The notes beneath the pieces are model-generated. The model searched no databases. It was not told where the DNA came from and worked only from the letters and a program-made list of their open reading frames with translations. Below are positions 814 to 23,780 of a stretch of 52,162 nt of DNA, piece by piece. This stretch comes from a virus (taxonomy: Duplodnaviria > Caudoviricetes), in the IMG/VR virus record IMGVR_UViG_3300043449_000682, positions 1 through 52,162 of that record; one strand, 5' to 3'. Numbering within the stretch: the stretch's first letter is position 1; each line of letters starts with the position of its first letter. Made by a program: the position numbers and the translations under genes.

Positions 814-818
814 TTATA

Positions 819-2774: not shown

Positions 2775-2800
2775 AATTAATTATACCACGAAGCCATAGT

Positions 2801-3894: not shown

Positions 3895-4031
3895 GATATA
3901 AGGCCCATAGAAAGATGGTCTAAGCAGACATCTGCAATAATAAAGTCATCACGATTAACAACTACATCGTAATGTGTTGCATCTTTCTGACAAAAAAAGC
4001 ATTTGGATTTTTTCATAAAACAATTATACCA

Positions 4032-5703: not shown

Positions 5704-5704
5704 C

Positions 5705-6319: not shown

Positions 6320-6363
6320 ATAACCATTATACACTATGAGTAGATATGAAGTATAATTGATGA

Positions 6364-6678: not shown

Positions 6679-6683
6679 TATCT

Positions 6684-7250: not shown

Positions 7251-7537
7251 GGCTTATTACATTTCGGACATTGTTTTGTAATCTCTTTGGTGCCGTAAGG
7301 TACCTGATACATTCCACCACAGTCAAAGCACAGCACATCAAGCATTATTGCCCCTGTTGTACTTTGTGTAGCAGGAAACACAGTATGTTCCATTCGTAGT
7401 TACCTGTGTCGCATTGGGTTGTCCGCAAATAGAGCATGTTAGTCCAGTCATTGTATAAGTATATCATGTGGTCAAGTTCGGCGAAAAATAGTCTTTAAAG
7501 TTCGGCGACGAATAGAGGTTAGAAACCTTTCAATGCC

Positions 7538-8035
7538 CTAGACGGGCAATATCGGTTGATATTCCTGATTTGCCCATTTCCTTAAATTACATAGTCCGTG
7601 TGCTGGTCTTACATTTTCTAGAGTATCTGAGCCACCCTTTGCAATAGGAACAAGATGATCGATATGCAAACCTTGCTCCCATCCATCAACCCCACATTTT
7701 CGGGGAGCCATAAAGTCAATGGCTAATCCACATAGGTAGCAATCAGTCCCATAAGAAGCAATAACCTGTAGTTCATTATAGTCGTTCGTAATCTTTGCTC
7801 TGCGTCGTCTGCTTTTAGATCGCTCTCGCTCTCTCACCTTATCAAGGTTTGAAGCACGATACTTGGCGGTTACATGAGCACGATTATTTTTGGCATATCG
7901 TAATCTATTATAGACACTTGATGCAGCCAAACACTCTATGCATGGTTTAGTCTTCTGGTTATGGTGTTTGCGATAGCCAGCATAGGTTCCACAGTTGGCA
8001 TATAGCCTATTGTCTATGTCGTTTTTTGTTTCCAT
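7538..8035 (-). CDS. HNH endonuclease
   Basis: CYLCG..HIDHLVPIAKGGSDTLENVRPAHGLCN. Confidence 0.92.
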   Translation of the reverse strand: METKNDIDNRLYANCGTYAGYRKHHNQKTKPCIECLAASSVYNRLRYAKNNRAHVTAKYRASNLDKVRERERSKSRRRRAKITNDYNELQVIASYGTDCYLCGLAIDFMAPRKCGVDGWEQGLHIDHLVPIAKGGSDTLENVRPAHGLCNLRKWANQEYQPILPV

Positions 8036-8118
8036 AGCGAGTCTTAACCTCAGCCTTAGCCTGATCTACAATAGCCTTTGTAATGTCTTCAACACTAAAC
8101 TCTTGGTCGAAGGTTTGT

Positions 8119-8325
8119 TCAGTATCCATTTAGGCACTCATTTCTTGTATGATATAGTCGAATCTTGGTCATTGTCTTTTTGTTTGGGGCATACAATTCT
8201 TCACCACAACAGGCAGTCTTAAGATACCACTCCTTAGCAAAGAAGTCATATATAAGACCCTTAGCGTCAGAGTATTTCTTGGCTACAAAGGTTTGAAATG
8301 GGTCTGGTATTTCCATATTGATCAT
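8119..8325 (-). CDS. hypothetical protein
   Basis: ORF with upstream TTGACA..GATACT promoter-like sequence. Confidence 0.6.
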   Translation of the reverse strand: MINMEIPDPFQTFVAKKYSDAKGLIYDFFAKEWYLKTACCGEELYAPNKKTMTKIRLYHTRNECLNGY

Positions 8326-8361
8326 AGATTAAGTATCCCACATTGGCCAAAGCATGTCAAG

Positions 8362-8389
8362 TGGATAGTTTATACTCATATCCAGGAGT
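8362..8389 (-). ncRNA. repeated H-type pseudoknot motif, copy 1
   Basis: ACTC-CTGGATA-T-GAGT-ATAAAC-TATCCA. Confidence 0.7.
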
Positions 8390-8780
8390 CTCAACCTTTA
8401 CTTTATACACGCTGTTGAGGTAGTCCGTGTCGGTTTTTCGTGGATAGTCACCTACCAAGAAAGGTTGTGAAGGTAATACTCACCATATGGCTTTCGGCTT
8501 CAATACAAGTATAGCGATTATTGCAGATAAAGTCAATAGGGTTAGTCTTCAGGATTAAAATAAGCCATAGCAGACCAGATATCGTTGTAATTATCTAGTT
8601 TGGCTTCTGTTTGATGCTCTTCGATTGTATTATTGTGGGTCATATAATAATTATATCACACACATTAAATCGCTAAAATTTCGGGGGATTTAGAGTGATG
8701 ATCGTAATCCCTAGTATAAGATATAAACCACTATAGGAACATATGCTGGATATGGGGAAATATCCGATGTATCGTAATCT

Positions 8781-8981
8781 TTATTTGCCGTTGGGTTTTA
8801 TAGAGTGTCTGTACTTCCAAACCTTTACACTGAATAAGACCTTTCCTCTGATGACAAACTCAAGTAAGAGATATGTCTTTCGTAATGAACGATCTACTTG
8901 GTACATACGAAAGATACCAGTGCGCTTTAGATATTTAGCCAGATAGTTATATTCCTTTGGACTCAGGTCATCATATATCAT
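8781..8981 (-). CDS. hypothetical protein
   Basis: MIYDDLSPKE... start directly after TGCTATACT extended -10. Confidence 0.45.
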   Translation of the reverse strand: MIYDDLSPKEYNYLAKYLKRTGIFRMYQVDRSLRKTYLLLEFVIRGKVLFSVKVWKYRHSIKPNGK

Positions 8982-8999
8982 GTACTTAGTATAGCAGGA

Positions 9000-9303
9000 A
9001 GTTATCCACAGGGCAAGGTGCTTGGATACCTTAAAATGGATCAAAATAAGGTGTTAGGATACCTTGGTTTGTTAGGCTTTGAATTAAAGTAAATGGCGTT
9101 TTACTTTAAAATAGAGAAATCTTTTAAAGTTTTGGACATAGTTATCCACAGGCTAGTCTCTAAATAGTTCGATTATCCCCCAAGTTATCGCTATGGCTGA
9201 TATGCCAATCATAGCGTAAACCCAGTAGATATACATTGTTGCAAAGTCCATTTGGTCATGATATCATGGTTTTGAATCATAGTTATCCACAGGTTTATCC
9301 ACA
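9000..9303 (+). promoter_or_regulatory. DnaA-box cluster (4 perfect TTATCCACA)
   Basis: 9002-9010, 9142-9150, 9283-9291, 9295-9303. Confidence 0.7.
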
Positions 9304-9425
9304 GATTAATCTTACTGATTATATATTTAGACATTCTAGAAGTGGAGCGATGTGGAGGATAGTGGAGCATAGAGCATATCATAGAAGGGGCGTAATGTCA
9401 AGCGGGGTTTTGAGGACTCTATCAC

Positions 9426-10030
9426 AAACCTCAAACCTTGTCAAACCTCAAACCTCATAGCCCCGATTTGGATGATATCACAGTTATAGTGGTTTGTCAA
9501 ACCTTAAGACCCTATAAAAAAATCCCCTAAAACTAGGGGAAAATTTGCTCATATCGTAATCTTTTTTAATAAAACTATTATGGTTTTTCTAGAAACCAAG
9601 AAGAAATGGTTTGTTATTCTATAGGGGGTAGAAGTTATATGGTTTGGTCTTGATCCCCTGGGATTTCGCCTGGGGCGAATCGGCCTTCGGCCTGATCAAG
9701 TTTAGGGCCCCTGTAAAAATCGGGGGTAAATGAAAAGAAAGGTGACAAACCTATAGCATGTGTAACAGTAACAAAGGTATTCCACATAGAGTCAGAGAAA
9801 GCCCTATATTCTTTTGGCTGTGCTTTTGCATATTGAGCAAAATGATCTCTTCCCATATTTATATTATAACATGGTTTGACAAACCTTGGTTTTCATGATA
9901 TAAGGTTTGGGGATATAAGGTTTGGATCGTAATCTTCTGGAGGGGGAAGGTTTTGGAGGTTCGTAATGTCTGAGGTTGGGGATTTTTTGGATAGGATCGT
10001 AATGTCTTTTGGAAATGAGGTTTGTGGTTT
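9426..10030. repeat. strand-asymmetric AAACCT/AGGTTT repeats, TCGTAA repeats and two GGTTTGWCAAACC palindromes
   Basis: AAACCT at 9426, 9433, 9443, 9450, 9499; AGGTTT at 9903, 9918, 9948, 10018; palindromes 9491-9503 and 9873-9885. Confidence 0.65.
9635..9856 (-). CDS. hypothetical protein
   Basis: ORF with TGTTATAAT just upstream of ATG. Confidence 0.45.
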   Translation of the reverse strand: MGRDHFAQYAKAQPKEYRAFSDSMWNTFVTVTHAIGLSPFFSFTPDFYRGPKLDQAEGRFAPGEIPGDQDQTI

Positions 10031-10078
10031 GTTACAAAAGAGTTTCCGGCCCCCTCGTGAGAGGGGTAGAGACAGAGA

Positions 10079-10351
10079 TTACTCTGTTGCCTCTATCGCC
10101 TCAAACAAGTCCTGCAAGTCGTCAAACCCTGCATCCTCAAAGTTCAACGCTTCCAACAACAAGTCCCATGTCTCATTGATGTATTGCTCAACTGTTGGAG
10201 TCAGATTGATAATTCCTTCTGCATAGCAAAATGCAAGAGGAATCCCGATGTCGTTGTATGCAAAGAAATCTGCCATTTCGTCATCATCTTTATGGTGCAT
10301 CCATACCTGTCCAAGAATTAAAGCCTTGCTTTCAAATGTTGTTGTGGGCAT
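10079..10351 (-). CDS. acidic hypothetical protein
   Basis: SD (GAAGG) and overlap with upstream gene. Confidence 0.75.
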   Translation of the reverse strand: MPTTTFESKALILGQVWMHHKDDDEMADFFAYNDIGIPLAFCYAEGIINLTPTVEQYINETWDLLLEALNFEDAGFDDLQDLFEAIEATE

Positions 10352-10538
10352 AATTTGTACCTTCCTTAGTTTCTTTGGCTGATTCTGCTATTGTCTGTAA
10401 ACGATTATACACTACATAAGGTTGAGACTTGGCTAGGTATTCCCCGACCAATTCTAAATCTACACGAAGGTCAGAAATAATGTTACCCATTTTATTAGCA
10501 ACTTTTTCTTCCTCCGTGATTTGTCTGCTCATACGCAT
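10332..10538 (-). CDS. hypothetical protein
   Basis: SD GGGAG upstream. Confidence 0.7.
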   Translation of the reverse strand: MRMSRQITEEEKVANKMGNIISDLRVDLELVGEYLAKSQPYVVYNRLQTIAESAKETKEGTNYAHNNI

Positions 10539-12271: not shown

Positions 12272-12293
12272 AGTATATCTTGGGCTACTGACA
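12272..12293 (-). promoter_or_regulatory. PafBC/RecA-NDp-type promoter
   Basis: TGTCAG-N10-TATACT. Confidence 0.65.
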
Positions 12294-12771: not shown

Positions 12772-12984
12772 TTAATTATAGGGGTTGGTGTTGATTTTTA
12801 CAACTTCTGGGGATGTGATGTTAGTCACAGTCTCCTGGACAGTGGCATCTTCCCATCCTAACAGGATCAGTTCATTAGGATAATCACACACACAGGTAGG
12901 GGTGTTCTTAAAATCCTGGGTAGTGACCTCAAAGAGGGTATCGCAGTGGGTACAGATAAGATTATACTTAAGCCAGTTAGTCAT
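12772..12984 (-). CDS. Cys-containing hypothetical protein
   Basis: CTHC..CVC, coupled to upstream gene. Confidence 0.6.
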   Translation of the reverse strand: MTNWLKYNLICTHCDTLFEVTTQDFKNTPTCVCDYPNELILLGWEDATVQETVTNITSPEVVKINTNPYN

Positions 12985-13163
12985 TAGAGCCTTCCTTCTA
13001 AATTAACAGATTCACATTCAGCACAAGTGCCATTGGATACATCATCATACCAGTCAGTCTCTACATCTAGCAAGTTGCCCTGATCATCATAAACACCCAA
13101 TTTATGAGATGTTTCGTCATACCAAAACTTACTGGTTTGACCACAGTCTAAACACTTAGGCAT
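12984..13163 (-). CDS. small zinc-ribbon protein
   Basis: CLDC..CAEC; start re-assigned to MPKC. Confidence 0.65.
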   Translation of the reverse strand: MPKCLDCGQTSKFWYDETSHKLGVYDDQGNLLDVETDWYDDVSNGTCAECESVNLEGRL

Positions 13164-13512
13164 TATTCCCCCAATGTAGCATAATAAGCCACATGGCTTG
13201 GTGCAGGGTACAGTCACATTCTCCACCATTCATGTTTTCCATGAAGTCAAAGTGAGAGTAGTTATCCTCATAGATAGAGGTTACGAGTTCGTCGATAGTA
13301 TAGGGTTTATATTTTGTTTGGGTCATATATCAATTATACGCCCATAACCTGGGAAATGTCAACTCTATCGTAAAGAATTTTTGGTTTGACATTTTTAGGG
13401 GAAAAGGTTTGTCTATCGTAATTTAATTTAACATTGACATTTTTATGTCCAAATTGCCCTATTTGTCCTGCCGGAAAAATTTTATGCATTGCAGTGCATA
13501 TTTATTTACTTG

Positions 13513-13586
13513 CGATCCGTACGGGACTTGAACCCGTGACCTCTACCGTGACAGGGTAGCGAACTAACCAACTATTCTAACGGACC
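13513..13586 (-). tRNA. trnD: tRNA-Asp (GTC)
   Basis: GGTCCGT/ACGGATC acceptor, CTACC-CTGTCAC-GGTAG anticodon arm, GGTTCAAGTCC T-arm. Confidence 0.93.
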
Positions 13587-13590
13587 ATGC

Positions 13591-13617
13591 GAGCAGTTTT
13601 AAATCGTGCTCAGGATT
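13591..13617 (-). ncRNA. repeated H-type pseudoknot motif, copy 2
   Basis: AATC-CTGAGCA-C-GATT-TAAAAC-TGCTC, 4 nt before tRNA-Asp. Confidence 0.75.
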
Positions 13618-13631
13618 AATTGTATCAGATG

Positions 13632-14654
13632 CTATGCGAGTTGCATAACATTCTGCACAACTTTCAGCAAACGATTTTTTTCTGCGTTAATTGCAGGGTC
13701 AAATCCTGATGCTGATGCAAGGATAGATTCGTTAGAACCACCACGAGCAGAGCGGTACCAGTCAAGGCGTTCAGTAAGAGCGTTAAATGCACCCCAAGCA
13801 GAACCAGCAATCATGCCATTAAACTCACCTGTGTAGATGTCGTTAATGGTGTCGATTTTGTTTTCCCACTTCTTGAGTGCGCCCTTAGCATCTTTCTCAG
13901 GCTTTGGGTATGCAGCGAGAATGATGTCATTGAAAGACTTAGCATTGACTTCCTTCTCGAACATAGCCTTAGCCATGATGTCGAACTCGTCCATGTAAGC
14001 ATTAGCAAGACCAAGAGTCTCACGAGCAATCTGCACCTTGCCTGATGCAGTCTGAGTGTGGCGAATCTTGAAAGATTGCTTGATGCCCTTATTCTTCTTA
14101 CGACCTACGCCACCAAGAGCAAGGTTAAGAGTGTTAGCGCATACAACACGAACAGGGGTAATAGATGCCTGAATAGCAATAGAACCGTCGTGTGATGTGT
14201 TGATGAGCAAATAAGTTTTTACCTTATCTGCAACACCGCTAGGGTCAAGAACAGTTTCACGCTCTAGTGCAAGAGAGCCGAATACTACACGACCACCCTT
14301 GATTGAGCCAGCAGTTTCCCAACGACCTCCGCCGTCAAGAATGTTGTCACCGAATGAGAATAAATCTTCATTCTGCATTACATGGTAACGCTCACCAACG
14401 ACACCAAGAATGTCGGTCTGCGTGTTGTCAGTAGGATTGGTACGCAATACATACTGATAGTTTTTATCGCTTGTGAGATGTGAGGGGGTTTCCAAATCTT
14501 CCAGACGAACATTCCAACCATTAAGATTAGCAGCAGCCAACATTTCTGATGTGGTTTTTTCTTCTGTAAATACGGTACCCAATCCATGCCAAGCGGGTTC
14601 ACGGAATGATGCAAATGATGCAACGCCGTTTTGTGTTTCGAGGTCATGTGCCAT
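13632..14654 (-). CDS. DUF932 (phage/plasmid TIGR03299-like) protein
   Basis: MAH..REPAWHGLG, GVVGERYHVMQN, ETAGSIKGG, NTSHDGS, TPVRVVCANTL. Confidence 0.9.
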   Translation of the reverse strand: MAHDLETQNGVASFASFREPAWHGLGTVFTEEKTTSEMLAAANLNGWNVRLEDLETPSHLTSDKNYQYVLRTNPTDNTQTDILGVVGERYHVMQNEDLFSFGDNILDGGGRWETAGSIKGGRVVFGSLALERETVLDPSGVADKVKTYLLINTSHDGSIAIQASITPVRVVCANTLNLALGGVGRKKNKGIKQSFKIRHTQTASGKVQIARETLGLANAYMDEFDIMAKAMFEKEVNAKSFNDIILAAYPKPEKDAKGALKKWENKIDTINDIYTGEFNGMIAGSAWGAFNALTERLDWYRSARGGSNESILASASGFDPAINAEKNRLLKVVQNVMQLA

Positions 14655-14685
14655 GAGTTTTCTCCTTTTTGTTGTTGATAATTTA

Positions 14686-14707
14686 AGTATACATGGGGGG
14701 TCTGACA
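14686..14707 (-). promoter_or_regulatory. PafBC/RecA-NDp-type promoter
   Basis: TGTCAG-N10-TATACT upstream of DUF932. Confidence 0.65.
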
Positions 14708-14840
14708 AATGCAAATCGGGATAGTTAGATATGGTATAAATCGGACATTTTTACGGGGTGTCGTAAATCACATCGTAAACATCAGCGTGTCCGCTTGACA
14801 AGATCAAAAAAGGGGCCGGAAAAATTTTGGGAATAAAAAG

Positions 14841-14870
14841 TGAGCAGTTTACATGGCCATGCTCAGGGCC
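14841..14870 (-). ncRNA. repeated H-type pseudoknot motif, copy 3 (degenerate copy adjacent at 14874-14901)
   Basis: GGCC-CTGAGCA-T-GGCC-ATGTAAAC-TGCTCA. Confidence 0.75.
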
Positions 14871-14916
14871 CTCATCCAGTTTAAAGACATTTGACAGGTC
14901 TATTAGTAGCCCCCTA

Positions 14917-15348
14917 CTAAAAATCAATTCTGTCTACACTGGCGGTAAGCCAAGTGATGTTATCAGAATTATATGAAACTGATTCAAAGTCAACATCGTT
15001 AACAATTGATTCTACATCTTCATCGTATGGAACCTGAAGTGTTAGGTTATAGGTGACTGAGACTTCGACTTCAACTTCCTTAGTAAGTTCAAAGCCCATT
15101 ATCTCTGCAATGTCTGTTGCTTGACTTTCTGTAATTGCATCACGCTCTAGTTCTGCCAAGGTCCAGTGCTGCATTCCTTCAACCATACGGTTACGGTCCG
15201 CTGAATCTGAATATGAGCGCTGAGTTACTTTTTGAATCTGTTCTTCTAACTGAGCAATCCGCTGGTCCTTCTGCACAATCTGAGTCTTAAGAAATTCCTC
15301 TGTTGCGTTTACTACGCCTGCAAGTGTTGATAGGTTCTGCTGGTCCAT
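14917..15348 (-). CDS. hypothetical coiled-coil protein
   Basis: SD GAAAGAGG, upstream promoter. Confidence 0.8.
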   Translation of the reverse strand: MDQQNLSTLAGVVNATEEFLKTQIVQKDQRIAQLEEQIQKVTQRSYSDSADRNRMVEGMQHWTLAELERDAITESQATDIAEIMGFELTKEVEVEVSVTYNLTLQVPYDEDVESIVNDVDFESVSYNSDNITWLTASVDRIDF

Positions 15349-15378
15349 GGGGGCCTCTTTCTGTTGTTGTTTATATTA

Positions 15379-15408
15379 ATTATACTCGTGGCCACTGACA
15401 ATTGTCAA
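15379..15408 (-). promoter_or_regulatory. dual promoter (TTGACA-18-TATAAT overlapping TGTCAG-N10-TATAAT)
   Basis: TTGACAATTGTCAGTGGCCACGAGTATAAT. Confidence 0.7.
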
Positions 15409-15421
15409 GGACCCTTGCGGG

Positions 15422-15447
15422 AGGCAGTTTTGGCTCTTACCTAGGAG
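15422..15447 (-). ncRNA. repeated H-type pseudoknot motif, copy 4
   Basis: CTC-CTAGGTA-A-GAG-CCAAAAC-TGCCT (compensatory changes in stem 2). Confidence 0.65.
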
Positions 15448-15561
15448 GTCTGCTTCTTTGGGGCTGCAGTACCCCTGCTCTATAGTATTTCTGTGATCGC
15501 CCTAATCAGCCTGGCGAAGTCTCCACTCTATTTATTTAGCCACGCATTTCTGTGGTCGTGG

Positions 15562-15589
15562 TGAGCCTTTTCCCTTCATGCTCAGGAAG
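15562..15589 (-). ncRNA. repeated H-type pseudoknot motif, copy 5
   Basis: CTTC-CTGAGCA-T-GAAG-GGAAAA-GGCTCA. Confidence 0.7.
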
Positions 15590-15610
15590 TATTATTCTCG
15601 TTATTGAGAA

Positions 15611-16027
15611 TTATAGGTATTGTGCGATAGACTTCATAGTTGAGGCATTTACTGTTTCCTCATCTGTCATTCGCAAAATAGATAGTGCGTTAGTGATTTC
15701 CTGCTTCATGTTCTTGTATTCCCACTCTGCAAGTCGCTCATGCTCACGCTGAGGCTCTTGTGGGAAGTCTGCGCCTGTTGTATCAACATCAAAGTCAATG
15801 TTGAGTGTGTTAGCCCATGTGCGGTGATTTGTGCGGAAGTTAGAAGCCTTCTTGATGTTAGCAATAGCGTAGTCAGTTAGAGCCTTACGATACTTCTCGT
15901 ATTCCTTCTGATACTTTGCTTCTACTTTTTCCTGATTTGCCATTTGTGTTTCAAGTGTAGCCAACTTAGTTTCAAGTGCCTTGATAACCTTTGGTGTTGC
16001 TACCTTAACTGTGATTGCTCTTGCCAT
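15611..16027 (-). CDS. hypothetical protein
   Basis: Start re-assigned to MARAIT after AAAGGAAA SD. Confidence 0.8.
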   Translation of the reverse strand: MARAITVKVATPKVIKALETKLATLETQMANQEKVEAKYQKEYEKYRKALTDYAIANIKKASNFRTNHRTWANTLNIDFDVDTTGADFPQEPQREHERLAEWEYKNMKQEITNALSILRMTDEETVNASTMKSIAQYL

Positions 16028-16061
16028 GTGGGTCGTTTCCTTTTCTGTTAGGGGGTTAGGT

Positions 16062-16089
16062 TGAGCAGTTTTCATTCATGCTCAGGAAT
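16062..16089 (-). ncRNA. repeated H-type pseudoknot motif, copy 6
   Basis: ATTC-CTGAGCA-T-GAAT-GAAAAC-TGCTCA. Confidence 0.75.
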
Positions 16090-16100
16090 AACTATTTAGA

Positions 16101-16265
16101 CTACTTAGCCGTCCAAGTTGTGTAGCGTGATGAACCATTTACATCTAACTTAACACGAACATTACCATTAGCCTGTGGGTTAATCTCGGTAATGATACCT
16201 GTAACCTTTGACTTCTGTGTTGTGAAAGTGTCGCCTACCTTGTATGTTGCTGTTGCTACTGCCAT
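16101..16265 (-). CDS. small SH3/KOW-like protein
   Basis: YKVGDTFTTQKSKVTG; start re-assigned to MAVAT. Confidence 0.7.
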   Translation of the reverse strand: MAVATATYKVGDTFTTQKSKVTGIITEINPQANGNVRVKLDVNGSSRYTTWTAK

Positions 16266-16388
16266 TTGTTTATTTCCTTTTCTGTTAGGGGTTTTTCTGT
16301 ATGTATTAAGTGTAACATTTTTTCTGACATTTTCCAAATCCATTTACTAATAATCTCAAAATGTGAGACATTATTAGTGTGATTTAGG

Positions 16389-16559
16389 TCACTTGCTTGT
16401 CTTGACCATAGCGAAGCGGTGTGCGCCATTTGCAAGTTGCAATGAAACTCTAGTTAGTTTAGAATTGATTGGTGTAAAGTTTTTAATTCGTCCTGTTACA
16501 CCTGTCTTGCTTGTTGTGAATAGGTCACCGATTTGGTAAGTGTATCCGTGAAGTGTCAT
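16389..16559 (-). CDS. small SH3/KOW-like protein (tandem paralog)
   Basis: YQIGDLFTTSKTGVTG; start re-assigned to MTLHG. Confidence 0.7.
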   Translation of the reverse strand: MTLHGYTYQIGDLFTTSKTGVTGRIKNFTPINSKLTRVSLQLANGAHRFAMVKTSK

Positions 16560-16793
16560 TTGGGTCTTGCCTTTCGTTGTGGGGGTTAATTGCTTATAGT
16601 ATAAGTCTAACAGAAAAATGTCAGAAATACCAATTCTAAGGGGGTTTTTGGGTGTGTCCTTAATCACATCTTAAAGGCGTGTCCAAACTTGACAAATCAA
16701 AAAAAATCTCCGGCCCTTTCGGGATCATTGAATAAGAAATATAAAAAACAATAACCAAAATAAAAATATTATTTGAAGTGAATTCACTCTAAC

Positions 16794-17525
16794 TCATTTC
16801 TTAGTCGCAGAGAATACGACATCACTCTTAGAGTATACACAAAGTGAACAAGAAACGCAAGCAGAGCCTGCATTGCTAATTAATGGAATGCGTTTTGCAT
16901 TTTCAGGACACTTAGCGCCAGGTTTATTTGTTAACGCTTTCATGTCTGCCTGGCCCTCTGCAAAATTCTTAGCAAGGTATGCTAATTTAATTCCATGCTC
17001 AGTTTTTAGACCAATTCCAATTGCTTTGTTTTCACTATCAGTGGAATAATATAAAGATAGATTAGGCTGGTCCTTAAGCATAAGCGCTGCAGATTCTACA
17101 CGAGTGTATACCCAAAATTGTACAAAACGATAATCCATGATTACTTGCTTCCAGGCATATGCATATGTATCGCTAAAGAAATCTCCGTCCCAGTGGATAC
17201 GGAATAGCAATGGTGCGTCTTTCTTTGCACAATCTTTAATAAAATCTACGATCATTTCCTTAAGTAGGATGACCATAGTTTCATAGTCTGCGTCTTTGAG
17301 TAGGTCCCAGTTATGGAGTAGGTTAGTCTTTACTCCTGGGAATATCTTTTCCAATTTACCTGCATAGCAAACAGTCTCGCAGACAGTCGTTGCGCCAGGA
17401 CATGAATAGTTCTTTCCTGCGGGTAGTCCGAAAGTGTTTGCGATACTTGCTTGCTTTCCATTAGGTGTGACAAGGTTAGCCACCTTTCTATCTTTAGAGC
17501 GCAGTAGTTTAGCAGTCAAGGCCAA
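16794..17525 (-). CDS. gene product 88 (GP88)-like, radical-SAM-like Cys-cluster protein
   Basis: SCPGAT.VC..VCYA, FRIHWDGDF, FWVYTR, C-terminal CVSCSLC. Confidence 0.75.
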   Translation of the reverse strand: MALTAKLLRSKDRKVANLVTPNGKQASIANTFGLPAGKNYSCPGATTVCETVCYAGKLEKIFPGVKTNLLHNWDLLKDADYETMVILLKEMIVDFIKDCAKKDAPLLFRIHWDGDFFSDTYAYAWKQVIMDYRFVQFWVYTRVESAALMLKDQPNLSLYYSTDSENKAIGIGLKTEHGIKLAYLAKNFAEGQADMKALTNKPGAKCPENAKRIPLISNAGSACVSCSLCVYSKSDVVFSATKK

Positions 17526-17721
17526 GGCTCATTTCTAACGCAATGTCTTCGTTGTATGTTGCAGACATTTCTTCCAATAGGCAATGGGTGCACATTTCTT
17601 CAACCTCATCGACAGAGTTTTCTTTGCATGAGGGGCAAGTAGTTTCATAGTATTCATCTAGGTATTCATCGTTTTCGAATGTCATGGGGGCACGACCTTT
17701 CTTAGTTGTTGTTATATTTTA

Positions 17722-17743
17722 AGTGTAGCATTTCTGACTGACA
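17722..17743 (-). promoter_or_regulatory. PafBC/RecA-NDp-type promoter
   Basis: TGTCAG-N10-TACACT. Confidence 0.6.
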
Positions 17744-17892
17744 TTTTCTACCCTTGCGAGTATATTTCTTTTTAGAAGGCACGGCAGAGGCAGCGTTGCT
17801 ACGGCGTAGTTCCATAAGCCTGCGTAATTCCTCTGGTGTTTTCTTCATATAATAATCTTAGCACACTAGGGAAAAAATATCAACTTCTTAAA

Positions 17893-17908
17893 TGTGACAA
17901 ATCTCACA
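17893..17908. promoter_or_regulatory. CRP-type box
   Basis: TGTGA-CAAATC-TCACA. Confidence 0.7.
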
Positions 17909-17974
17909 CTAATCACGACACGCCCGAACGAGCCGGAAATTTTTGTGCGGGGAAGCACACAAAAACTTTTTAAA

Positions 17975-18220
17975 CTATTCTTCTTCTTCTTCAATAAAAA
18001 CATATAACGGAATTGAATCAGTGTAACTATACTGTGTGACTTCTCTTTCACCGAATTCGTTTTCTGTTTGTATGTCGTAGTTATCTCCTGTTGAATCACT
18101 TTCAATAAAAGTAACTTCAACTATGTCGTCACCAATTTTAATTAAATCACCAAGCATTAGTTGGTCTGGTGTTAAATCATCTGCGTGGATCAATTCCATA
18201 GTTTCCATTGTATCAGACAT
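17975..18220 (-). CDS. acidic hypothetical protein
   Basis: GGAGG SD, abuts upstream gene. Confidence 0.7.
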   Translation of the reverse strand: MSDTMETMELIHADDLTPDQLMLGDLIKIGDDIVEVTFIESDSTGDNYDIQTENEFGEREVTQYSYTDSIPLYVFIEEEEE

Positions 18221-18505
18221 TTAGTCCTCCCAATCAGGTAGCCAGAATGATAAGTGATGCTGTTCAACAATCGCACTTGCAGGGGCTTGAGTTTCTCCAC
18301 GATAGAGAATCTGAAAGTCACCAACCTTTGGCATATCAATCATGCGCTGATAGTCTTCGTCATAGTAGGCGTCGATGGCTTCGATGCATGGCGTTACCAT
18401 TTCTGCGGGGACTGGAGGATAGTGATTACCCTTTAAGTGATAAAGAATCTGAGTCTCAAGGTCCAATACTGTATCCTGAATTCCTAATGCTGTTACTGCT
18501 CCCAT
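18221..18505 (-). CDS. hypothetical phage protein
   Basis: HLKGNHYPPVP motif; start re-assigned to MGAVT. Confidence 0.75.
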   Translation of the reverse strand: MGAVTALGIQDTVLDLETQILYHLKGNHYPPVPAEMVTPCIEAIDAYYDEDYQRMIDMPKVGDFQILYRGETQAPASAIVEQHHLSFWLPDWED

Positions 18506-18720
18506 TATGCAACCACCTTTACTGTTCCGTTTCGATAAAATAACTTGGTGTAACACTTGCCTGTTGGCGTGTGCAGATTAACTGTGCGATATTCTTTAGC
18601 CATTCCCCAATCGGTGAATAGAAAGAAGTTCTCCCATGCGCCATATTCTTTTTCATAGCGTTGTGTCCAATGAGGGGCTTCGCCGTCATAGGCACTTGTG
18701 ATTACATATTCATAGTCCAT
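18505..18720 (-). CDS. hypothetical protein
   Basis: SD GAGG and coupling. Confidence 0.7.
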   Translation of the reverse strand: MDYEYVITSAYDGEAPHWTQRYEKEYGAWENFFLFTDWGMAKEYRTVNLHTPTGKCYTKLFYRNGTVKVVA

Positions 18721-19029
18721 TAGTTAGCCTCTTTCGTTGTAAATAGTGCGCCTTCATTAAGTAAGCCTAACTCTAAATTAAATAATTCATCGCTATTGGC
18801 TTGTGCTAAGTCTATCCAACCTGCACCATCGTTGTCCATTCTAAAAATCTCAATGTATCCCATTAGTGTTGTTCCTCGCAATCAGTAGAATAATCAAACT
18901 CACAATAGTAGCAACCCATTTGCTCGCCATGCTCTTTGCAGACATAGACAAACTGGCTTTCGTCACAACAAAATTTAATTTCATCTTTAACAAAATAAAA
19001 TTCGTTTTGATCAATGTATTCCTTTATCA

Positions 19030-19230
19030 TTATTCACCAACCTTTACTGCGAGATAGCGGTATGTATCTTTAATTGAATTGTAGGGGCGTACTTGAACGA
19101 AGTATGTATCGCAATCCTTGTACCATACATTATTATTTAATTCAGCGGAGATAATTTCTCCCTGAACAGAGTTAGAGCGATAGGACTTGCCCACTAAGAG
19201 GCTTTCGATAGTATAGACATTTGCTGACAT
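19030..19230 (-). CDS. hypothetical protein
   Basis: GAAAGGTG SD. Confidence 0.7.
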   Translation of the reverse strand: MSANVYTIESLLVGKSYRSNSVQGEIISAELNNNVWYKDCDTYFVQVRPYNSIKDTYRYLAVKVGE

Positions 19231-19262
19231 TAGTTGTCACCTTTCTTTTTCTTGATAATACT

Positions 19263-19284
19263 ATCCTAGCCTATGGGACTGACA
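19263..19284 (-). promoter_or_regulatory. PafBC/RecA-NDp-type promoter
   Basis: TGTCAG-N10-TAGGAT. Confidence 0.6.
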
Positions 19285-19333
19285 TTTCTCTACTTACTAG
19301 GCAGTAATTCCAAACTTTGAGACGCTCAGGCCA

Positions 19334-19349
19334 TGTGATAAGGGTCACA
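19334..19349. promoter_or_regulatory. CRP-type box
   Basis: TGTGA-TAAGGG-TCACA. Confidence 0.7.
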
Positions 19350-19466
19350 CCAAAATGTCCGTTTTGTCTGTCAAATCGACACGCCGTAAACTGTGAAAAT
19401 TTTTCTTTGATCTTAAACATAGTGTTTCCCACACCCTGTGGATAACTTTCAGGGCCGGAAAATTTT

Positions 19467-19494
19467 TGAGCAGTTTTGAATCTTGCTCAGGATC
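19467..19494 (-). ncRNA. repeated H-type pseudoknot motif, copy 7
   Basis: GATC-CTGAGCA-A-GATT-CAAAAC-TGCTCA. Confidence 0.75.
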
Positions 19495-19781
19495 ACAATT
19501 TACTTTTGCAAATCGTTTTTGATTTCTTGCCAATCTTCTTTTAGCATTGGCAACATCATGCGGAATAAAACAAAAACGCTACCAACTAAAAATAGTTGAA
19601 CGATTGTTGTGATTAGTCTATTCATTACAAGCCTCCATAAATTTTTCCATTTTGAAATTTGGGTTATCTTCTGCGAACCAAAACGCAAAGTCATCGATTA
19701 AAATATCTAATCGGCAAGTATCGCCTTTTGAGTGCTTTGAAATAATTTTAGCAACCTCTATGTAGTCTTTGCGAGTCATCA

Positions 19782-20039
19782 TTATGCAACCCCCACCAAT
19801 TCTAGGAACATTTCAGTGCCCCCCTCATTGATTACATAGACTTGCTTTTCAATTGAAGCCCAAGACATATCTTCGATGTCTGGCATTAGTTCATCAATTG
19901 CGTCAGTGTTCATTTTGATAAACTGTTCTTTGATTGCAACAATTTGCGGTAGGTAGCGAGAAGTCTCGGCCACCTTTGAAATAAACTGATAGCCCTTATG
20001 TTCAAAAGGGAAGATAGCGAATGCAACTTTGTTAGTCAT
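19782..20039 (-). CDS. hypothetical protein
   Basis: Start re-assigned to MTNKV (coupled to upstream stop). Confidence 0.7.
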   Translation of the reverse strand: MTNKVAFAIFPFEHKGYQFISKVAETSRYLPQIVAIKEQFIKMNTDAIDELMPDIEDMSWASIEKQVYVINEGGTEMFLELVGVA

Positions 20040-20224
20040 TAGAGAGTAGCCTTTCCACGAAGTGTTCCAGAGATTGAGAGAGCGTCGCAAGACACTTTGA
20101 GAGCAACGCCTACTGGCAACTGCTGAGGATACTGCGAGATGAATTGAGCAACTGCACCCTTTGAAGGAAGTGCGATTGATTTTGTTGAGCCATTGAATGA
20201 CTCTAGTTTGATAATGTAGTTCAT
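20039..20224 (-). CDS. small hypothetical protein (paralog of 22275..22463)
   Basis: GAAAGGTGG SD. Confidence 0.75.
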   Translation of the reverse strand: MNYIIKLESFNGSTKSIALPSKGAVAQFISQYPQQLPVGVALKVSCDALSISGTLRGKATL

Positions 20225-20259
20225 GTTGAACCACCTTTCTTTGTTTGTTTGTATAATTA

Positions 20260-20281
20260 AGTATAGCAGGGGGGTCTGACA
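20260..20281 (-). promoter_or_regulatory. PafBC/RecA-NDp-type promoter
   Basis: TGTCAG-ACCCCCCTGC-TATACT. Confidence 0.65.
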
Positions 20282-20309
20282 AATTGGGCACTTATTCGCT
20301 TAGGCTCAC

Positions 20310-20494
20310 TGTGATACTAGTCACATTTATTTGCTAAGGCTCATTGCTTTATTTAGACATTATTTAATTGTATAAGAGAATCTTATCACAAAAATGTCAA
20401 AAAGTCAAGTCTAAACACGGCGTGTCGTATGTGATTAATCTCACATTGGTTATACACAGCCTGTGGATAACTTTTTGGAGGCCGGAAAAATTTT
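20310..20494. promoter_or_regulatory. composite cassette: CRP boxes (20310, 20430), GGCGTGTC (20419), paired DnaA boxes (20450, 20462), GCCGGAAAAATTTT (20481)
   Basis: Motifs read directly from the sequence. Confidence 0.7.
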
Positions 20495-21194
20495 GCAGAG
20501 TTTTATTTCTGCAAAACTATTTTCTTTATTTAAAATCTTTAAAAATTTCTTCTAAAGTTTTTATTTGCTCATCATTTAGATGATCGATGTTGATTGCATT
20601 TGCAAATCCAAATAAATCTTTTTCCATTTTAGTTTTCCTCAATTTCTATTTCTAAACAATTTGTTTCTAGATTTTTTAGCGGGGTATTGTAGATAAGGTA
20701 AGTTGCCTCATCTTGGTCAACGGCATCAACCTCAACGGCGATTGTATAAATAAACTTAGGCATTAGCCACCTCCTCAATGTGGAAAGCGTCGAACTTAGC
20801 AATTTCATCTTCGCTAAGCGGGTAGAGTGATTTATTTAGAGCAAATACCGCTCTCATCTCATCTTCTGCCTCTACGACATAAGAAATTAGCACATTGTAT
20901 TTAGTCATTATTTGACCTCCTTATAGAGATAGTCCCATGCCTTACGGCACATCAAGATAGATTGGCAATTATCACAACAGATAACACCATGTGGGTTAAG
21001 GTCTACATCATAGACATCAACAGGGGCGGAAGATTTGCCACATACAGAGGCAAGGTTAATAAATGTGCTCATTTATTTAAGTCCTTTCGTTCTTTTGATA
21101 ATTCTTTTATCATTGCATACAGCGCAGATAAGGTGGAAAGTATTTTTAAACCATCGCTCTTTCCATAGTAGCGAATTACATTTAGGACAGGCGC

Positions 21195-21377
21195 TCATTG
21201 AGACACCTTCCAATTTGTCCACATAGGTAGACGCTCTGGGTCGGTATCGTTATACCAACGCTCAATGTTTTGTTCACACACTTCGCAGAATGTGAATTGG
21301 TCATCTCCTACCATAGAGATAGCAGATTTATTAGGGGTGTGTGATTTACACACTTCGATTTTTGTTAGTGTTATCAT
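21195..21377 (-). CDS. small Cys-containing protein
   Basis: GAAAGG SD; FCEVC. Confidence 0.65.
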   Translation of the reverse strand: MITLTKIEVCKSHTPNKSAISMVGDDQFTFCEVCEQNIERWYNDTDPERLPMWTNWKVSQ

Positions 21378-21431
21378 TTTGATAACCTTTCTTTAAGGGG
21401 CTTACTTCTTTTTCAACCTTGTATACATACA

Positions 21432-21665
21432 AGTATAGCAGGGGGGTCTGACATTTTGAGGGGTACAAAACGGACATTTAGGAAATAAGGTATTGTGAAT
21501 CACATCACATTTTTAGGGGAATGATAACAATAGCGTAACAATGCCAAGATCATCGGCGTGTTGACTTGACAAAAAGAGGCCGGAAAAAATGTGGGCTAAA
21601 TCACATTAAAAATGTCCGATTTGTCCGTGTCTAAACTTGACTTTTTGACATTTCTATGCTATACT
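21432..21665. promoter_or_regulatory. divergent promoter region (strand switch)
   Basis: Minus-strand TGTCAG-N10-TATACT 21432-21453; CRP boxes 21494 and 21590; plus-strand TTGACT..TGCTATACT about 21638-21665. Confidence 0.7.
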
Positions 21666-21724
21666 TACAGTATTAAGAAAAATTAAATAAGAACAAATAA
21701 CTACTAAAGAAAGGTGTTCATTAA

Positions 21725-21940
21725 ATGAATACACTAGATAAAAATACAATCAAACACTCTAAGTTCGGTCACCTTGACCTAGAACAGCGTATCCACCTCG
21801 CTGCAACTATGGTTGCTAATGGTGAGGTAGTATCTTTTAGAGGTGCTAGTGCTGAAACCTATCGCAAGGTAGAGGCTCTCGCTAACAAGATTAAGTTAGA
21901 GCGTGAGTTCCCACAGTGCCCATGTGGAGAGTGCGACTAA
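21725..21940 (+). CDS. hypothetical protein
   Basis: GAAAGGTG SD; C-terminal CPCGEC. Confidence 0.75.
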   Translation: MNTLDKNTIKHSKFGHLDLEQRIHLAATMVANGEVVSFRGASAETYRKVEALANKIKLEREFPQCPCGECD

Positions 21941-22274
21941 TGCACATCTACCTATGCGACTCATGCAATACACTCGCTACCGTTATCCAAGAGGGTAACA
22001 CAATAACATTAACCCCCTGCCTATGTACTAAGGAGAATAAATAACATGGAATGCATTATTAGAAATTGCGAAAGCACACAGTTAGTTTATAGCGGAACAG
22101 ATGCGTTCATGCTAGGCATACCAACAGAAAAGGTTTGCTATGACCATGCCAACATCTATGCACAGGTAAGTAACCTAGTAGATGCTCAGTGAATTAGATA
22201 GGCGCAGAGCGCACCTCGCAAGCGGGGGAACAATAAGCAATTATGACCGAAGCCATTACAAGAAAGAAGAAAAA

Positions 22275-22518: not shown

Positions 22519-22610
22519 GCATTGTTTTCTACATATCATGTATCATACATCTGAACAAAATATTCAGATTTTAGCCTATTTGGTTTTTGCCTCTGGTGTA
22601 TAATAAAGTT

Positions 22611-23780
22611 ATGACACATAAAGAAGGTTTTGACTGGCCCTATTTCTTTAGACTATTAAAGAAAAGAATAGAGGGCAATCACATACCAAACCCAGACAAG
22701 AATAACTCATACTTTGTGGTCACTAGCAAAGCGGTAGAAGATGTTGCGCTAAACGAATATAACAGTTTTATAAAAGATGCTGGTTTTAAAAGATTGGGCT
22801 ATGCGGTTGGATCTGGTTTGTTCACTGCAGAAGAGCCAGGGCATATGAGAAATAAAAAAGAAGTGTCTCCAGCATTCGACAATGATCATATTAAAAAATA
22901 TGAGGGTCAAGCATCACCAATTGTAGACAAGATCATATCTGGCTGGTCTGGAGAGATCAATGTTCGAGAAGAAATGAAGTTTATTGTTTTTAAGAGCGTT
23001 ATGGAAATATTTTTTTCAGAAAACGCAGATGATGATTTTGAGAAAATAAAAAACAATATCGCAGTAGTCATGGATGAAGTTGCTTTTAACTTTAAGTACG
23101 ATGGTTCGGGGGAAGCAACAGAAAAAGTCCACGAAGTATGTAGAAACATAGTAGATAAAAGACTGGCATCTAAAGAAGTAAAAAATGATTTTCTGGATAT
23201 GATAATTAACTCATATAAAAATGGAAAAATAGATTTTGAAGACCTTTACGCAGAGACACTTTCTTTATTTGTGGGCAGTTATGAATCAACAGCACATACT
23301 CTAGAATGGGCAATGTACTATTTGGCGACAAACAAGGTTTGGCAAGAAAAGTTATCTGAAAGAGAAAATTTGGAGGCATTCATAAAAGAGGTTTTGAGAA
23401 TGTGTCCTGCTATCTGGAATAGCCAGAGAATTGCGACGGAAGACGTAGTTGTAGATGGAACCCTCCTTCCTGCTGGAACCAAAGTAACCATAAGTTCATA
23501 TGCAATGCACAGAGATGAAAAGGTTTTTGAAGATCCAGACTCATTCAAACCAGAGAGATGGCTAGAAAACCCTAAATTGGCAAAGGGAGAGTATTTCCCA
23601 TTTATGTTTGGCAAAAGGCAGTGTGTCGGTAAAGAATATGCCTTAATGCAGTTACGCCTAGTAATAGGGAAAGTTGCTGAAATGTTTGATCTCGAACTGC
23701 TAAACGATAAAGTCCATCACATTGGCTCATTGGCGCTTAGAACAGACACCCCAATAAGAATTAACGTAACAAAAAAATAA
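22611..23780 (+). CDS. cytochrome P450
   Basis: I-helix GSYESTA, ExxR (EVLR), PERW, heme motif FMFGKRQCVG. Confidence 0.95.
   Translation: MTHKEGFDWPYFFRLLKKRIEGNHIPNPDKNNSYFVVTSKAVEDVALNEYNSFIKDAGFKRLGYAVGSGLFTAEEPGHMRNKKEVSPAFDNDHIKKYEGQASPIVDKIISGWSGEINVREEMKFIVFKSVMEIFFSENADDDFEKIKNNIAVVMDEVAFNFKYDGSGEATEKVHEVCRNIVDKRLASKEVKNDFLDMIINSYKNGKIDFEDLYAETLSLFVGSYESTAHTLEWAMYYLATNKVWQEKLSERENLEAFIKEVLRMCPAIWNSQRIATEDVVVDGTLLPAGTKVTISSYAMHRDEKVFEDPDSFKPERWLENPKLAKGEYFPFMFGKRQCVGKEYALMQLRLVIGKVAEMFDLELLNDKVHHIGSLALRTDTPIRINVTKK

Follow-up and report, generated by a model that had tools for sequence, protein, structure and literature searches.

The subject of this report is a set of non-coding spacers in the early region of a virus (Duplodnaviria; Caudoviricetes) represented by the IMG/VR record IMGVR_UViG_3300043449_000682. 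The window analysed here is the whole of that record, 52,162 bases with a GC content of 31-45%, and it is estimated to be about 48% complete. A series of small genes is read leftward, starting at about 21.4 kb and reaching a tRNA cluster at the left end, and the genes that run rightward from 21.7 kb encode a P450, tail fibre-like proteins, a class II ribonucleotide reductase, a portal and a prohead protease. A first-pass annotation of this DNA had named seven large spacers of the early region and described them as collections of sites for host proteins. In the map of open reading frames (ORFs) these seven are real non-coding gaps between minus-strand ORFs, at 13327-13511, 14655-14916, 16562-16793, 17849-17974, 19231-19499, 20225-20628 and 21378-21724, and an eighth that had been missed lies at 15349-15610. 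Judged by their sequence, the spacers are control regions of short early operons and not a random mosaic.

A near-identity search with positions 13000-22000 against 50,697 deposited phage genomes gave no match. The protein of the GP88-family ORF (16794-17525) led to at least 597 related viral contigs in IMG/VR, of which the best 80 were kept, and a 169-amino-acid ORF (19782-20291) led to 9 related contigs. The conservation set is 88 related loci of about 1.49 Mb in total, with the early genes set in the forward direction, and its expected counts are given per strand. Five of the relatives are complete, with genomes of 109-115 kb. All five encode WhiB, which among 14 control genomes was found in Corynebacterium only and which is described as exclusive to Actinobacteriota and as a marker of actinophages (PMC10202952). 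The best phage matches of the DUF932 ORF (13632-14714), at about 50% identity, are in Streptomyces and Mycobacterium phages. Because of the WhiB of the relatives and these DUF932 matches, the phage is read as an actinophage, and because phage GC is 38-40%, its host is probably a low-GC freshwater actinobacterium. The description we favour, with some reserve, is thus that of a whiB-encoding phage of about 110 kb that infects low-GC freshwater Actinobacteria, where we infer the identity of the host.

As candidate hosts, small actinobacterial genomes were sampled from one class, with size as the criterion of choice; they are stand-ins and not the proven host. The entry point to the class was a metagenome-assembled genome (MAG) holding a binned phage contig. 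In all, 251 genomes were sampled for RecA, which was found in 250, and the sequence upstream of recA was read in 15 single-contig genomes of 1.3-1.5 Mb. A WhiB of the phage family (63-79% identity) is also present at 11 loci in genome contigs, all on MAG contigs, which are labelled with unrelated taxa (Chitinophagaceae, Acidimicrobiaceae, Methylococcus, Polynucleobacter, Aquiluna and others). These labels were set aside as host evidence, and the contigs were taken as phage DNA that had likely been swept into bins.

The reuse of the same motifs among the spacers is far above chance when both strands of the window are counted against a first-order Markov expectation. The promoter pattern TGTCAG-N10-TAnnnT is found 9 times (8 on the minus strand) where 0.75 are expected, and the palindrome TGTGA-N6-TCACA 7 times against 0.11 expected, with 5 copies against 0.017 within 13300-21725. 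Other repeated parts are GGCGTGTC (4 against 0.32), AAATGTCCG (4 against 0.25), GCCGGAAA (7 against 0.54, and 3 against 0.001 for the full 14-mer) and GAGCA-N11-TGCTCAGG (3 against 0.001). The DnaA-type box TTATCCACA occurs 6 times against 0.71 expected, with 2 copies in the spacer region and 4 clustered at 9002-9303. Two looser patterns are not enriched in the window: TTGACA alone (48 against 47.3) and the relaxed DnaA box TTWTNCACA (9 against 8.5).

The spacers had been described as shuffled cassettes that hold the same parts in different order and orientation. Orientation does change, for the non-palindromic parts only, and the order of the parts is largely fixed. It is usually a 3' hairpin directly following the stop codon of the preceding gene, an A/T tract with GCCGG (AAAATTTTTCCGGC), a DnaA-box pair, GACACGCC, the palindrome, the promoter, a Shine-Dalgarno (SD) sequence and the start codon. 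Sharing of parts also does not extend to every spacer, since the one at 13327-13511 is without the TGTCAG promoter and the palindrome and has a consensus TTGACA/TATAAT promoter. The pseudoknot counted among the parts was not found; what was found is a conserved simple hairpin. An inverted block shared by two spacers is real, and it is longer than the 29 bp first given for it: 37 nucleotides (nt), 20384-20420 against 21625-21661, are 86% complementary. This block is a sigma-A-type promoter (TTGACT-17-TAAGAT in one copy, TATACT as the -10 in the other) with its upstream flank, and one copy serves the leftward and the other the rightward genes. The spacers would be operon boundaries made of a 3' RNA hairpin, operator-like sites and a promoter, an interpretation that we consider somewhat better than even.

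Absence of the motifs from the syntenic spacers of relatives had been set beforehand as one refuting test of the first-pass proposal, and the motifs are conserved there: all but one recur across the 88 related loci. The promoter pattern TGTCAG-N10-TAnnnT is present in all 88, with 597 sense and 55 antisense copies against 8.0 expected, as is the palindrome, with 395 copies against 2.4. The DnaA-type box TTATCCACA is present in 85 loci (171 forward and 210 reverse copies against 8.2), GACACGCC in 83 (113 and 207 against 5.3), CGGACATTT in 74 (32 and 141 against 3.7) and the hairpin CCTGAGCA-N11-TGCTC in 81 (177 forward and 0 reverse against 0.01). The family logos are AwwTGTCAGtccc...TGnTAnaaT for the promoter, and TGTGAnnTnnATCACA, CGACACGCCGT, gaCAAAtCGGACATTT and aaaGTTATCCACAgG. 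Position is conserved as well. Among 62 relatives with enough flanking sequence, a stretch of 750 nt upstream of the GP88-family gene has the TGTCAG promoter in 48, the perfect palindrome in 27 and the looser TGTG-N8-CACA in 40; in the 450 nt downstream of the gene, the promoter is found in 33 of 62 and the perfect palindrome in 32. In G001, one of the complete relatives, a leftward block that wraps around the ends of the record (about 102-113 kb plus 1-7 kb) holds the minus-strand promoter matches and the perfect palindromes, together with most instances of the other motifs.

The likeness among spacers could be non-functional and reflect no more than promoter cassettes that were recently duplicated in this genome. 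The near-identical promoter blocks of 28-46 nt and the 37-nt inverted block within this genome fit that view. Also, GCCGGAAAAATTTT is confined to this genome, and TTTCCGGC is not enriched in the relatives (4 and 3 matches against about 6.7 expected per strand, in 4 of the 88 loci). Because TTTCCGGC is in so few loci, the GCCGG part is regarded as peculiar to this genome; at its position the relatives have other GC-rich words (GACGTGC, TCGACCCG, CCGGGCCG). The core motifs contradict duplication as the explanation: they keep their place while the flanks vary, in relatives whose GP88-family protein is 74-92% identical, and the hairpin shows compensatory changes. As an account of the spacers, mere duplication is therefore very improbable, and it could apply only to the GCCGG tract.

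The main promoter class of the family, drawn from 508 distinct instances, has no -35 element and has an extended -10. The TGTCAG box sits 10 nt upstream of that -10, at about -28 to -23, in a layout of 22 nt, and the two bases after TGTC are AG in 597 cases and GG in 43. Downstream come an SD sequence and a start codon, at a distance that is most commonly about 30 nt (189 of 508 contexts). PMC8635444 gives the PafBC consensus as tGTCgg(N10)tA(N3)T; in these promoters of "sigma adaptation" there is no -35 element, contact is made with the box at -23 to -28, and the GTC triplet is the base-specific contact. The label "PafBC-type promoter" therefore stands: the 22-nt layout and the spacing of the published consensus recur in the phage promoters, which keep GTC and have A in place of g at position 5, and in the candidate hosts this box is also found upstream of recA. 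While the logo shows no conserved -35, one hybrid promoter at 15379-15408 also has TTGACA. The phage copies differ from PafBC (RecA-NDp) promoters in being repeated 5-8 times within 10-20 kb and in having A where the mycobacterial consensus has g.

Upstream of recA, each of the 15 small genomes has exactly one TGTC-N12-TAnnnT. In 12 of them it reads TTGTCAG(T/A/C)...CCTGCTACCTT, followed by a LexA-type box TCGAACAGATGTTCGGA, and in the other 3 the box is TGTCGG. The phage copies read TTTGTCAGACCCCCCTGCTATACTT, so that they share the TTGTCAG variant and the CCTGCTA context of the -10 with these 12 genomes, and unlike the host promoter they are not followed by a LexA box. Among 20 larger genomes of the class the motif is found upstream of recA in 18 (11 with GG, 5 with AG, 1 with AC and 1 with GT). 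Genome-wide, TTGTCAG-N10-TAnnnT occurs at 54 sites in 12 small genomes against 16 for a backwards control, or about 4.5 per genome, and several of these sites recur at syntenic places. In the 400 kb that were fetched of one candidate host, G197, the only TGTCAG-N10-TAnnnT lies just upstream of a nuclease-like ORF (PF13482). All five candidate host genomes scanned for regulators have a tandem WYL pair that is PafBC-like. From this likeness, the best-founded link to the host is that the phage early promoters are clients of host PafBC, which we hold to be rather probable. Among the papers listed for PafBC together with phage or mycobacteriophage, and judged by those listings, none deals with phage promoters that use the PafBC -26 box.

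The promoter boxes also bear on the idea of a DNA sponge, which the first-pass annotation had offered as an alternative. On this account the main role of the perfect CRP and DnaA sites, to which the PafBC boxes might be added, would be to titrate host regulators by drawing them onto phage DNA as it replicates. That would shut down host replication initiation, the DNA-damage response and cyclic AMP (cAMP)-controlled genes, and regulation of phage genes would not be the purpose of the sites. Some counts fit it: 8 minus-strand TGTCAG promoter matches in the window and 5 in G001 compare with about 4.5 TTGTCAG-type sites in a whole candidate host genome, perfect consensus sites of the kind the phages carry are nearly lacking in the candidate hosts, and DnaA boxes occur in promoter-free clusters too (9002-9303 in the window, 102588-103430 in G001). 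Set against this, the promoter boxes are strand-specific (597 against 55), lie at a fixed distance from the -10 and have an SD sequence and a start codon downstream, which marks them as working promoters, and the palindromes stand at a few fixed distances from promoters, which titration would not require. A sponge role is not needed to explain the cassettes, and as their explanation it is unlikely.

The palindromes had been annotated as CRP sites, and they are indeed perfect matches to the consensus TGTGA-N6-TCACA described in PMC10187061, from which natural sites usually deviate. There are 7 perfect copies in the window and 395 in the 88 loci, so that these sites are, unlike natural ones, both perfect and numerous. 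Distances were measured from the centre of the palindrome to an assumed start 7 nt after the -10, in 233 distinct contexts upstream of a TGTCAG promoter. The centres peak at -64.5 (43 contexts), -70.5 (16), -74.5 (15) and -85.5 (26), and the palindromes of the window, computed from their coordinates, are centred at -64.5 twice, -74.5, -76.5, -85.5, -69.5 and -52.5. Because the centres step by 10-11 bp, the palindromes are suggested to lie on one face of the helix, and in this, as in the perfect 16-bp consensus and the place upstream of promoters, they resemble class I-type sites of CRP/GlxR. On the host side, each of the five candidate genomes has one Crp-family gene. The CRP of G197, the only one examined, matches PDB 3i54, an actinobacterial CRP of solved structure, with an E value of 4e-79 and has an identical recognition helix, "asretvnkaladfa". 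Since perfect palindromes are nearly absent from the candidate hosts, the phage sites would be the strongest in the infected cell. Whether the palindromes serve as unusually strong sites for host CRP or as the operator of an unrecognised phage protein is, on their sequence and distribution, about even.

The DnaA-type sites are likewise perfect consensus boxes, 6 in the window and 381 in the 88 loci against about 16 expected on both strands. The two in the spacer region each belong to a convergent pair: one pair, GTTATCCACAGGCTGTGTATAAC, is at 20450-20470, and in the other a box at 19437 has a weaker partner. Outside the spacers there is a plus-strand cluster at 8988-9460, in which four AGTTATCCACAGG boxes of one orientation (9002, 9142, 9283 and 9295) are spaced by 140, 141 and 12 nt. 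Next to the boxes are three GTGGAG repeats (9341-9370) and two copies of CAAACCTCAAACCT (9425 and 9442). The stretch is poorly coding, GC skew turns positive there, and G001 has a five-box cluster at the matching place, 102588-103430; it is a candidate replication origin or DnaA-binding locus. Just downstream of dnaA, G197 has 5 DnaA-type boxes in a stretch of 112 nt; one of them is GTTATCCACA, an extended form also seen in the phage boxes. Any DnaA at the phage boxes would be the host's, since none of the five complete relatives encodes DnaA, and host DnaA likely reads the TTATCCACA boxes. The perfect TTATCCACA 9-mers, in close pairs and in clusters of four or five, recall oriC arrays and the DnaA-titrating locus datA of E. 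coli. They differ from these in that the phage is without a DnaA gene and many of its boxes are inside promoter spacers.

Host control has to be weighed against control by the phage's own proteins, and here a distant actinophage is informative. The Streptomyces phage Jay2Jay (Stanwilliamsviridae) has, like the present phage, an early block of small leftward genes with spacers of 70-210 nt, which in Jay2Jay lies in the terminal repeat. Its spacers also hold a 3' hairpin, a CGGACA-type motif and a promoter with a TG-extended -10, it has a DUF932 homologue (about 50% identity), and the motif (A)AATCGGACATTT is found in both phages. The CAAATCGGACATTT motif (CGGACA / AAATCGGACATTT) recurs in the early spacers of Jay2Jay (1-10500), where by inspection 13 of 14 spacers have a CGGACA-type motif, which suggests that CGGACA / AAATCGGACATTT is a regulatory word conserved across distant actinophages. 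The differences are that the promoters of Jay2Jay have a -35-like TTGTAT and a TAGACT -10, and that its first 14 kb have no TGTC[AG]G-N10-TAnnnT, perfect palindrome or TT[AG]TCCACA box. With CGGACA common to both phages and these three motifs absent from the first 14 kb of Jay2Jay, the vocabulary is in part old in the lineage and in part special to the freshwater family, the special part being the PafBC-type promoters, the palindromes and the DnaA boxes.

The cassettes could accordingly be read by phage-encoded regulators, for example a MotA-like activator at TGTCAG, a Cro- or repressor-like dimer at the palindrome and others at GACACGCC and CGGACATTT, with the likeness to host sites due to convergence or coincidence. 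The palindromes, abundant in the phages and nearly absent in the candidate hosts, look like a typical private operator; CGGACA is common to Jay2Jay though the hosts are very different; and the varying words at the GCCGG position could reflect coevolution with a phage protein. There is also a precedent in T4, whose middle promoters, like the promoters here, have no -35 element and have an activator box upstream of a normal -10, beside ordinary early promoters. At T4 middle promoters (a MotA box and a sigma-70 -10), a phage-encoded activator and co-activator remodel sigma region 4. PMC8635444 compares PafBC with MotA/AsiA, a precedent for a phage activator box that takes the place of the -35 element. 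Unlike T4, this phage has no recognisable activator, and its box equals the host's own. A Pfam scan of the 92 ORFs of the window and PHROGs scans of 14 large and 48 small ORFs found no regulator or other DNA-binding family, and the domains WYL, HTH_Crp_2, HTH_11, Sigma70_r2 and Bac_DnaA were found in none of the five complete relatives. Box, spacing and CCTGCTA context match host recA promoters, and the TTATCCACA boxes match host boxes next to dnaA. Phage-encoded regulators thus seem a doubtful explanation, though a better one than a sponge.

Several further observations weigh against control by host factors. Pfam and PHROGs often miss the small DNA-binding proteins of phages. The 23 sense copies of CGGACA in Jay2Jay, against 3.4-3.7 expected, hint that at least some sites belong to a factor of the phage lineage; the recurrence fits such a factor as well as a host one. 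No regulator could be named for GGCGTGTC, AAATGTCCG, CGACACGCCGT or CAAATCGGACATTT, and GCCGGAAAAATTTT, as said, is not conserved in the 88 loci. The fetched 400 kb of G197 have a GC content of 45% against 38-40% in the phages, and none of the phage motifs is enriched there. The bases that follow the box differ, tccc in the phage and TGGC at host recA. Perfect palindromes number 1 against 3 for the control in 12 candidate host genomes, and one-mismatch palindromes number 3 against 7 in the 400 kb of G197, none of them intergenic. Use of the palindrome by the CRP of the candidate hosts is thus not confirmed, as the palindromes are not enriched in those genomes. Each of the peaks at -64.5, -74.5 and -85.5 may go back to a single inherited spacer and not to independent events, and under the start-site assumption these peaks miss the classical class I positions of CRP (-61.5, -71.5 and -82.5) by about 3 nt. 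A terminator scan of the window found 10 sites against 6.9 +/- 2.5 in shuffles, which is no enrichment, so that "operon end" is a statement about position.

In the explanation that we favour with moderate confidence, the cassettes are control regions of early operons that would be read by host factors. Each spacer would open with the 3' end of the prior operon, marked by the RNA hairpin, and would continue with operator-like sites and a promoter. The first class would comprise sigma-A promoters of the ordinary kind, which have both a -35 and a -10 element; in two cases the promoter is so near the ATG that the mRNA is probably leaderless. Those of the second and more frequent class, with no -35, with TGTCAG at about -28 to -23 and with an extended -10, would be activated by the host PafBC heterodimer by sigma adaptation, as at the host recA promoter. 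PafBC is activated by single-stranded DNA (ssDNA), according to PMC11804915. The ssDNA that arises from entry or replication of phage DNA would therefore make PafBC active and switch on the second-class operons, and host CRP and host DnaA would contribute further signals through the perfect CRP-type palindromes and the paired DnaA boxes. Such wiring is plausible because the phages have no recognisable members of these regulator families while the candidate hosts have PafBC-like pairs, CRP and DnaA, and the case for it is strongest for PafBC. The promoters probably mimic the host recA promoter and so tie the early genes to host regulators. Which proteins bind, in what host and with what timing is what we infer from these likenesses, and the sensing of "cell cycle" and "carbon" proposed in the first-pass annotation is a guess. 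That host sensors of stress and growth (ssDNA, cAMP, the replication initiator) run the early programme while those regulators are also drained is an extended reading that we hold to be less likely than not. The sequence was found in no listed RNA run. Contigs from four runs, of RNA or possibly DNA, are mostly 90-95% alike and gave no transcript starts or ends; joints in them, with short sides and a likeness below 95%, were set aside.

Phages that borrow host regulators are already known. If the PafBC link is true, a lytic phage uses the ssDNA alarm of its host as its own timer, which would connect the actinobacterial DNA-damage response with phage development and would make this the first case of sigma adaptation exploited by a phage. 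On the extended reading, the super-consensus sites would also drain the regulators of a streamlined host, whose own genome has no more than a handful of such sites. Arrays of TGTCAG-N10-TAnnnT offer a sequence signature by which an uncultured phage could be assigned to an actinobacterial host. The family abounds in lakes, and the bacteria it likely infects belong to the most numerous in fresh water, so that its control logic bears on population turnover. The promoter is open to a direct test in the existing in vitro PafBC transcription assays.

The conserved hairpin is made of CCU-GAGCA, an 11-nt loop that ends in AAAC, and UGCUC, with a stem of 5-6 bp and a folding energy of about -6 kcal/mol, and it is strand-specific. 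A relaxed pattern gives 311 fully paired copies on the forward and 0 on the reverse strand, with a partly paired background alike on both. The stem also varies in a compensatory way (AAGCA/TGCTT 27 times, GGACA/TGTCC 9, GAGTA/TACTC 5 and GAACA/TGTTC 4, with 61 G-U forms). In the window, copies lie at 13591-13619, 16063-16091 and 19468-19496, with variants at 14842-14867 and 15562-15596. The minus-strand copy at 13591-13619 (CCUGAGCA-loop-UGCUC; -5.5 kcal/mol, z -2.1) ends 4 nt before the 5' end of a tRNA-Asp gene (13512-13586). In the relatives the hairpin lies 3-9 nt upstream of 55 of 69 forward tRNA genes, mostly 3-5 nt and most commonly 4 nt, and 67 of the 77 tRNAs found there on either strand are tRNA-Asp. 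Rfam at gathering thresholds reports only 5 tRNAs in the window and no family for the hairpin. The hairpin was considered as an intrinsic terminator and rejected: none of the 10 sites of the terminator scan is a copy of it, and an A/T tract follows only 35 of 246 distinct copies. A role as an RNA processing or stabilising signal is a guess. Another candidate set aside was WhiA as the reader of GACACGCC, on the basis of its GACAC motif; GACAC alone is not enriched in the window (10 and 6 against 9.2 and 5.2 expected). For AAATGTCCG, a second PafB site was considered as a possible reading.

The individual cassettes, all on the minus strand unless stated otherwise, are described here in the order of their coordinates. 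The leftmost (13327-13511) comes after the tRNA-Asp gene and has a small hairpin, AAAATTTTTCCGGC at 13470-13477 and two direct repeats of 47 nt each (13351-13397 and 13399-13445). Its sigma-A promoter, with TTGACA at 13362-13357 and TATAAT at 13338-13333, matches the consensus at 12 of 12 positions. The ATG at 13326 is 6 nt past the -10 (TATAAT-TGATAT-ATG), with no room for an SD sequence. The ATG at 17848 is placed in the same way (TAAGAT-TATTAT-ATG), and because of this 6-nt distance both mRNAs are likely leaderless. Leaderless mRNAs are common in Actinobacteria.

The cassette at 14655-14916 starts with the hairpin variant at 14842-14867 and TTTCCGGC at 14815-14822, and continues with TTGTCAAG plus GACACGC (14785-14791), the degenerate palindrome TGTGATTTACGACACC and AAAATGTCCGATTT (14738-14753). 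Its PafBC-type promoter, TGTCAG-N10-TATACT at 14686-14707, is followed by an SD sequence and the ATG at 14654. The additional cassette at 15349-15610 is a 262-nt spacer free of ORFs, with the hairpin variant at 15562-15596 and the hybrid promoter at 15379-15408, which combines TTGACA as the -35 with TTGTCAGTGGC and TATAAT; the -26 box TTGTCAGTGGC is identical to the host recA box. A small RNA within 15410-15600 was considered and is unsupported, as the stretch folds no better than its shuffles (z 0.20). At 16562-16793 there is a short stem with a T-run (CCCGAAAGGGCCGGAGATTTTTTTT), then TTGTCAAG plus GGACACGCC (16677-16683), a palindrome with one mismatch (16653-16668) and a promoter-like CTGACA-17-TACTAT (16596-16624). 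The cassette at 17849-17974 has a hairpin, AAAATTTCCGGC at 17932-17939, GGGCGTGTCG on the plus strand at 17917-17923, the perfect palindrome TGTGACAAATCTCACA at 17893-17908 and the promoter TTGATA-17-TG-n-TAAGAT at 17855-17883. A further PafBC-type promoter match, TGTCAGTC-N8-TACACT at 17722-17743, lies inside the small ORF 17702-17848 and upstream of the ORF 17509-17685.

The cassette at 19231-19499 begins with the hairpin copy at 19468-19496 and AAAATTTTCCGGCC (19454-19461), after which the DnaA box GTTATCCACAGG (19437-19445) faces a degenerate box. There follow GGCGTGTCG on the plus strand (19378-19384), AAAACGGACATTTT (19355-19361), the perfect palindrome TGTGACCCTTATCACA (19334-19349), centred at -85.5 from the assumed start, and a PafBC-type promoter (19263-19284). 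The cassette at 20225-20628 has two promoters. After a hairpin (20491-20516) and TTTCCGGC (20481-20488) come a convergent pair of DnaA boxes, one perfect (20462-20470) and one with a single mismatch (20450-20458), a first palindrome (20430-20445), GACACGCCG (20420-20426) and the sigma-A promoter TTGACT-17-TAAGAT (20380-20408). A second palindrome (20310-20325), flanked by GCTWAGGCTCA repeats, then precedes the PafBC-type promoter (20260-20281), and both palindromes are centred at -64.5 from the assumed starts of their promoters. On the plus strand, the direct repeats on the two sides of the second palindrome (20290-20345) read GCTTAGGCTCAC and GCTAAGGCTCAT. The last cassette (21378-21724) is divergent. 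For the leftward genes it has a PafBC-type promoter (21432-21453), AAATGTCCG (21471-21477) and a palindrome (21494-21509), in the middle GGCGTGTTGACTTGACA (21554-21571) and GCCGGAAAAAA (21579-21586), and for the rightward genes a palindrome with one mismatch (21590-21605), AAATGTCCGATTTGTCCGTGTC (21610-21632) and, on the plus strand, the sigma-A promoter TTGACT-17-TG-n-TATACT (21637-21665).

A few matches lie at or inside coding sequence, namely a perfect palindrome at 12814-12829 and TGTCAG-type promoter matches at 12272-12293 and 19208-19229, and they may be internal promoters or chance matches. The 169-amino-acid ORF at 19782-20291 overlaps a TGTCAG promoter and its 5' leader at 20225-20291, and an ATG at 20224 with a strong SD sequence opens another frame of 61 amino acids (20039-20224). 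The "protein" match of relatives to residues 1-20 of the longer ORF may be conservation of the promoter at the DNA level.

Among the remaining genes of the window, an ORF of 1246 amino acids (43932-47672) between the ribonucleotide reductase and the portal has no sequence match in Pfam, PHROG or PDB. The P450 ORF was tried as a host marker and dropped, as none of its 185 pattern matches in genome contigs is a relative; no close relative of this cytochrome P450 was found among 185,579 species genomes. It is one of several auxiliary-type genes (22587-23780, 3352-3894, 6684-7250, 4032-6334 and 31553-32170), which comprise the P450, two sulfotransferase-like and three 2OG-Fe(II) oxygenase-like genes.

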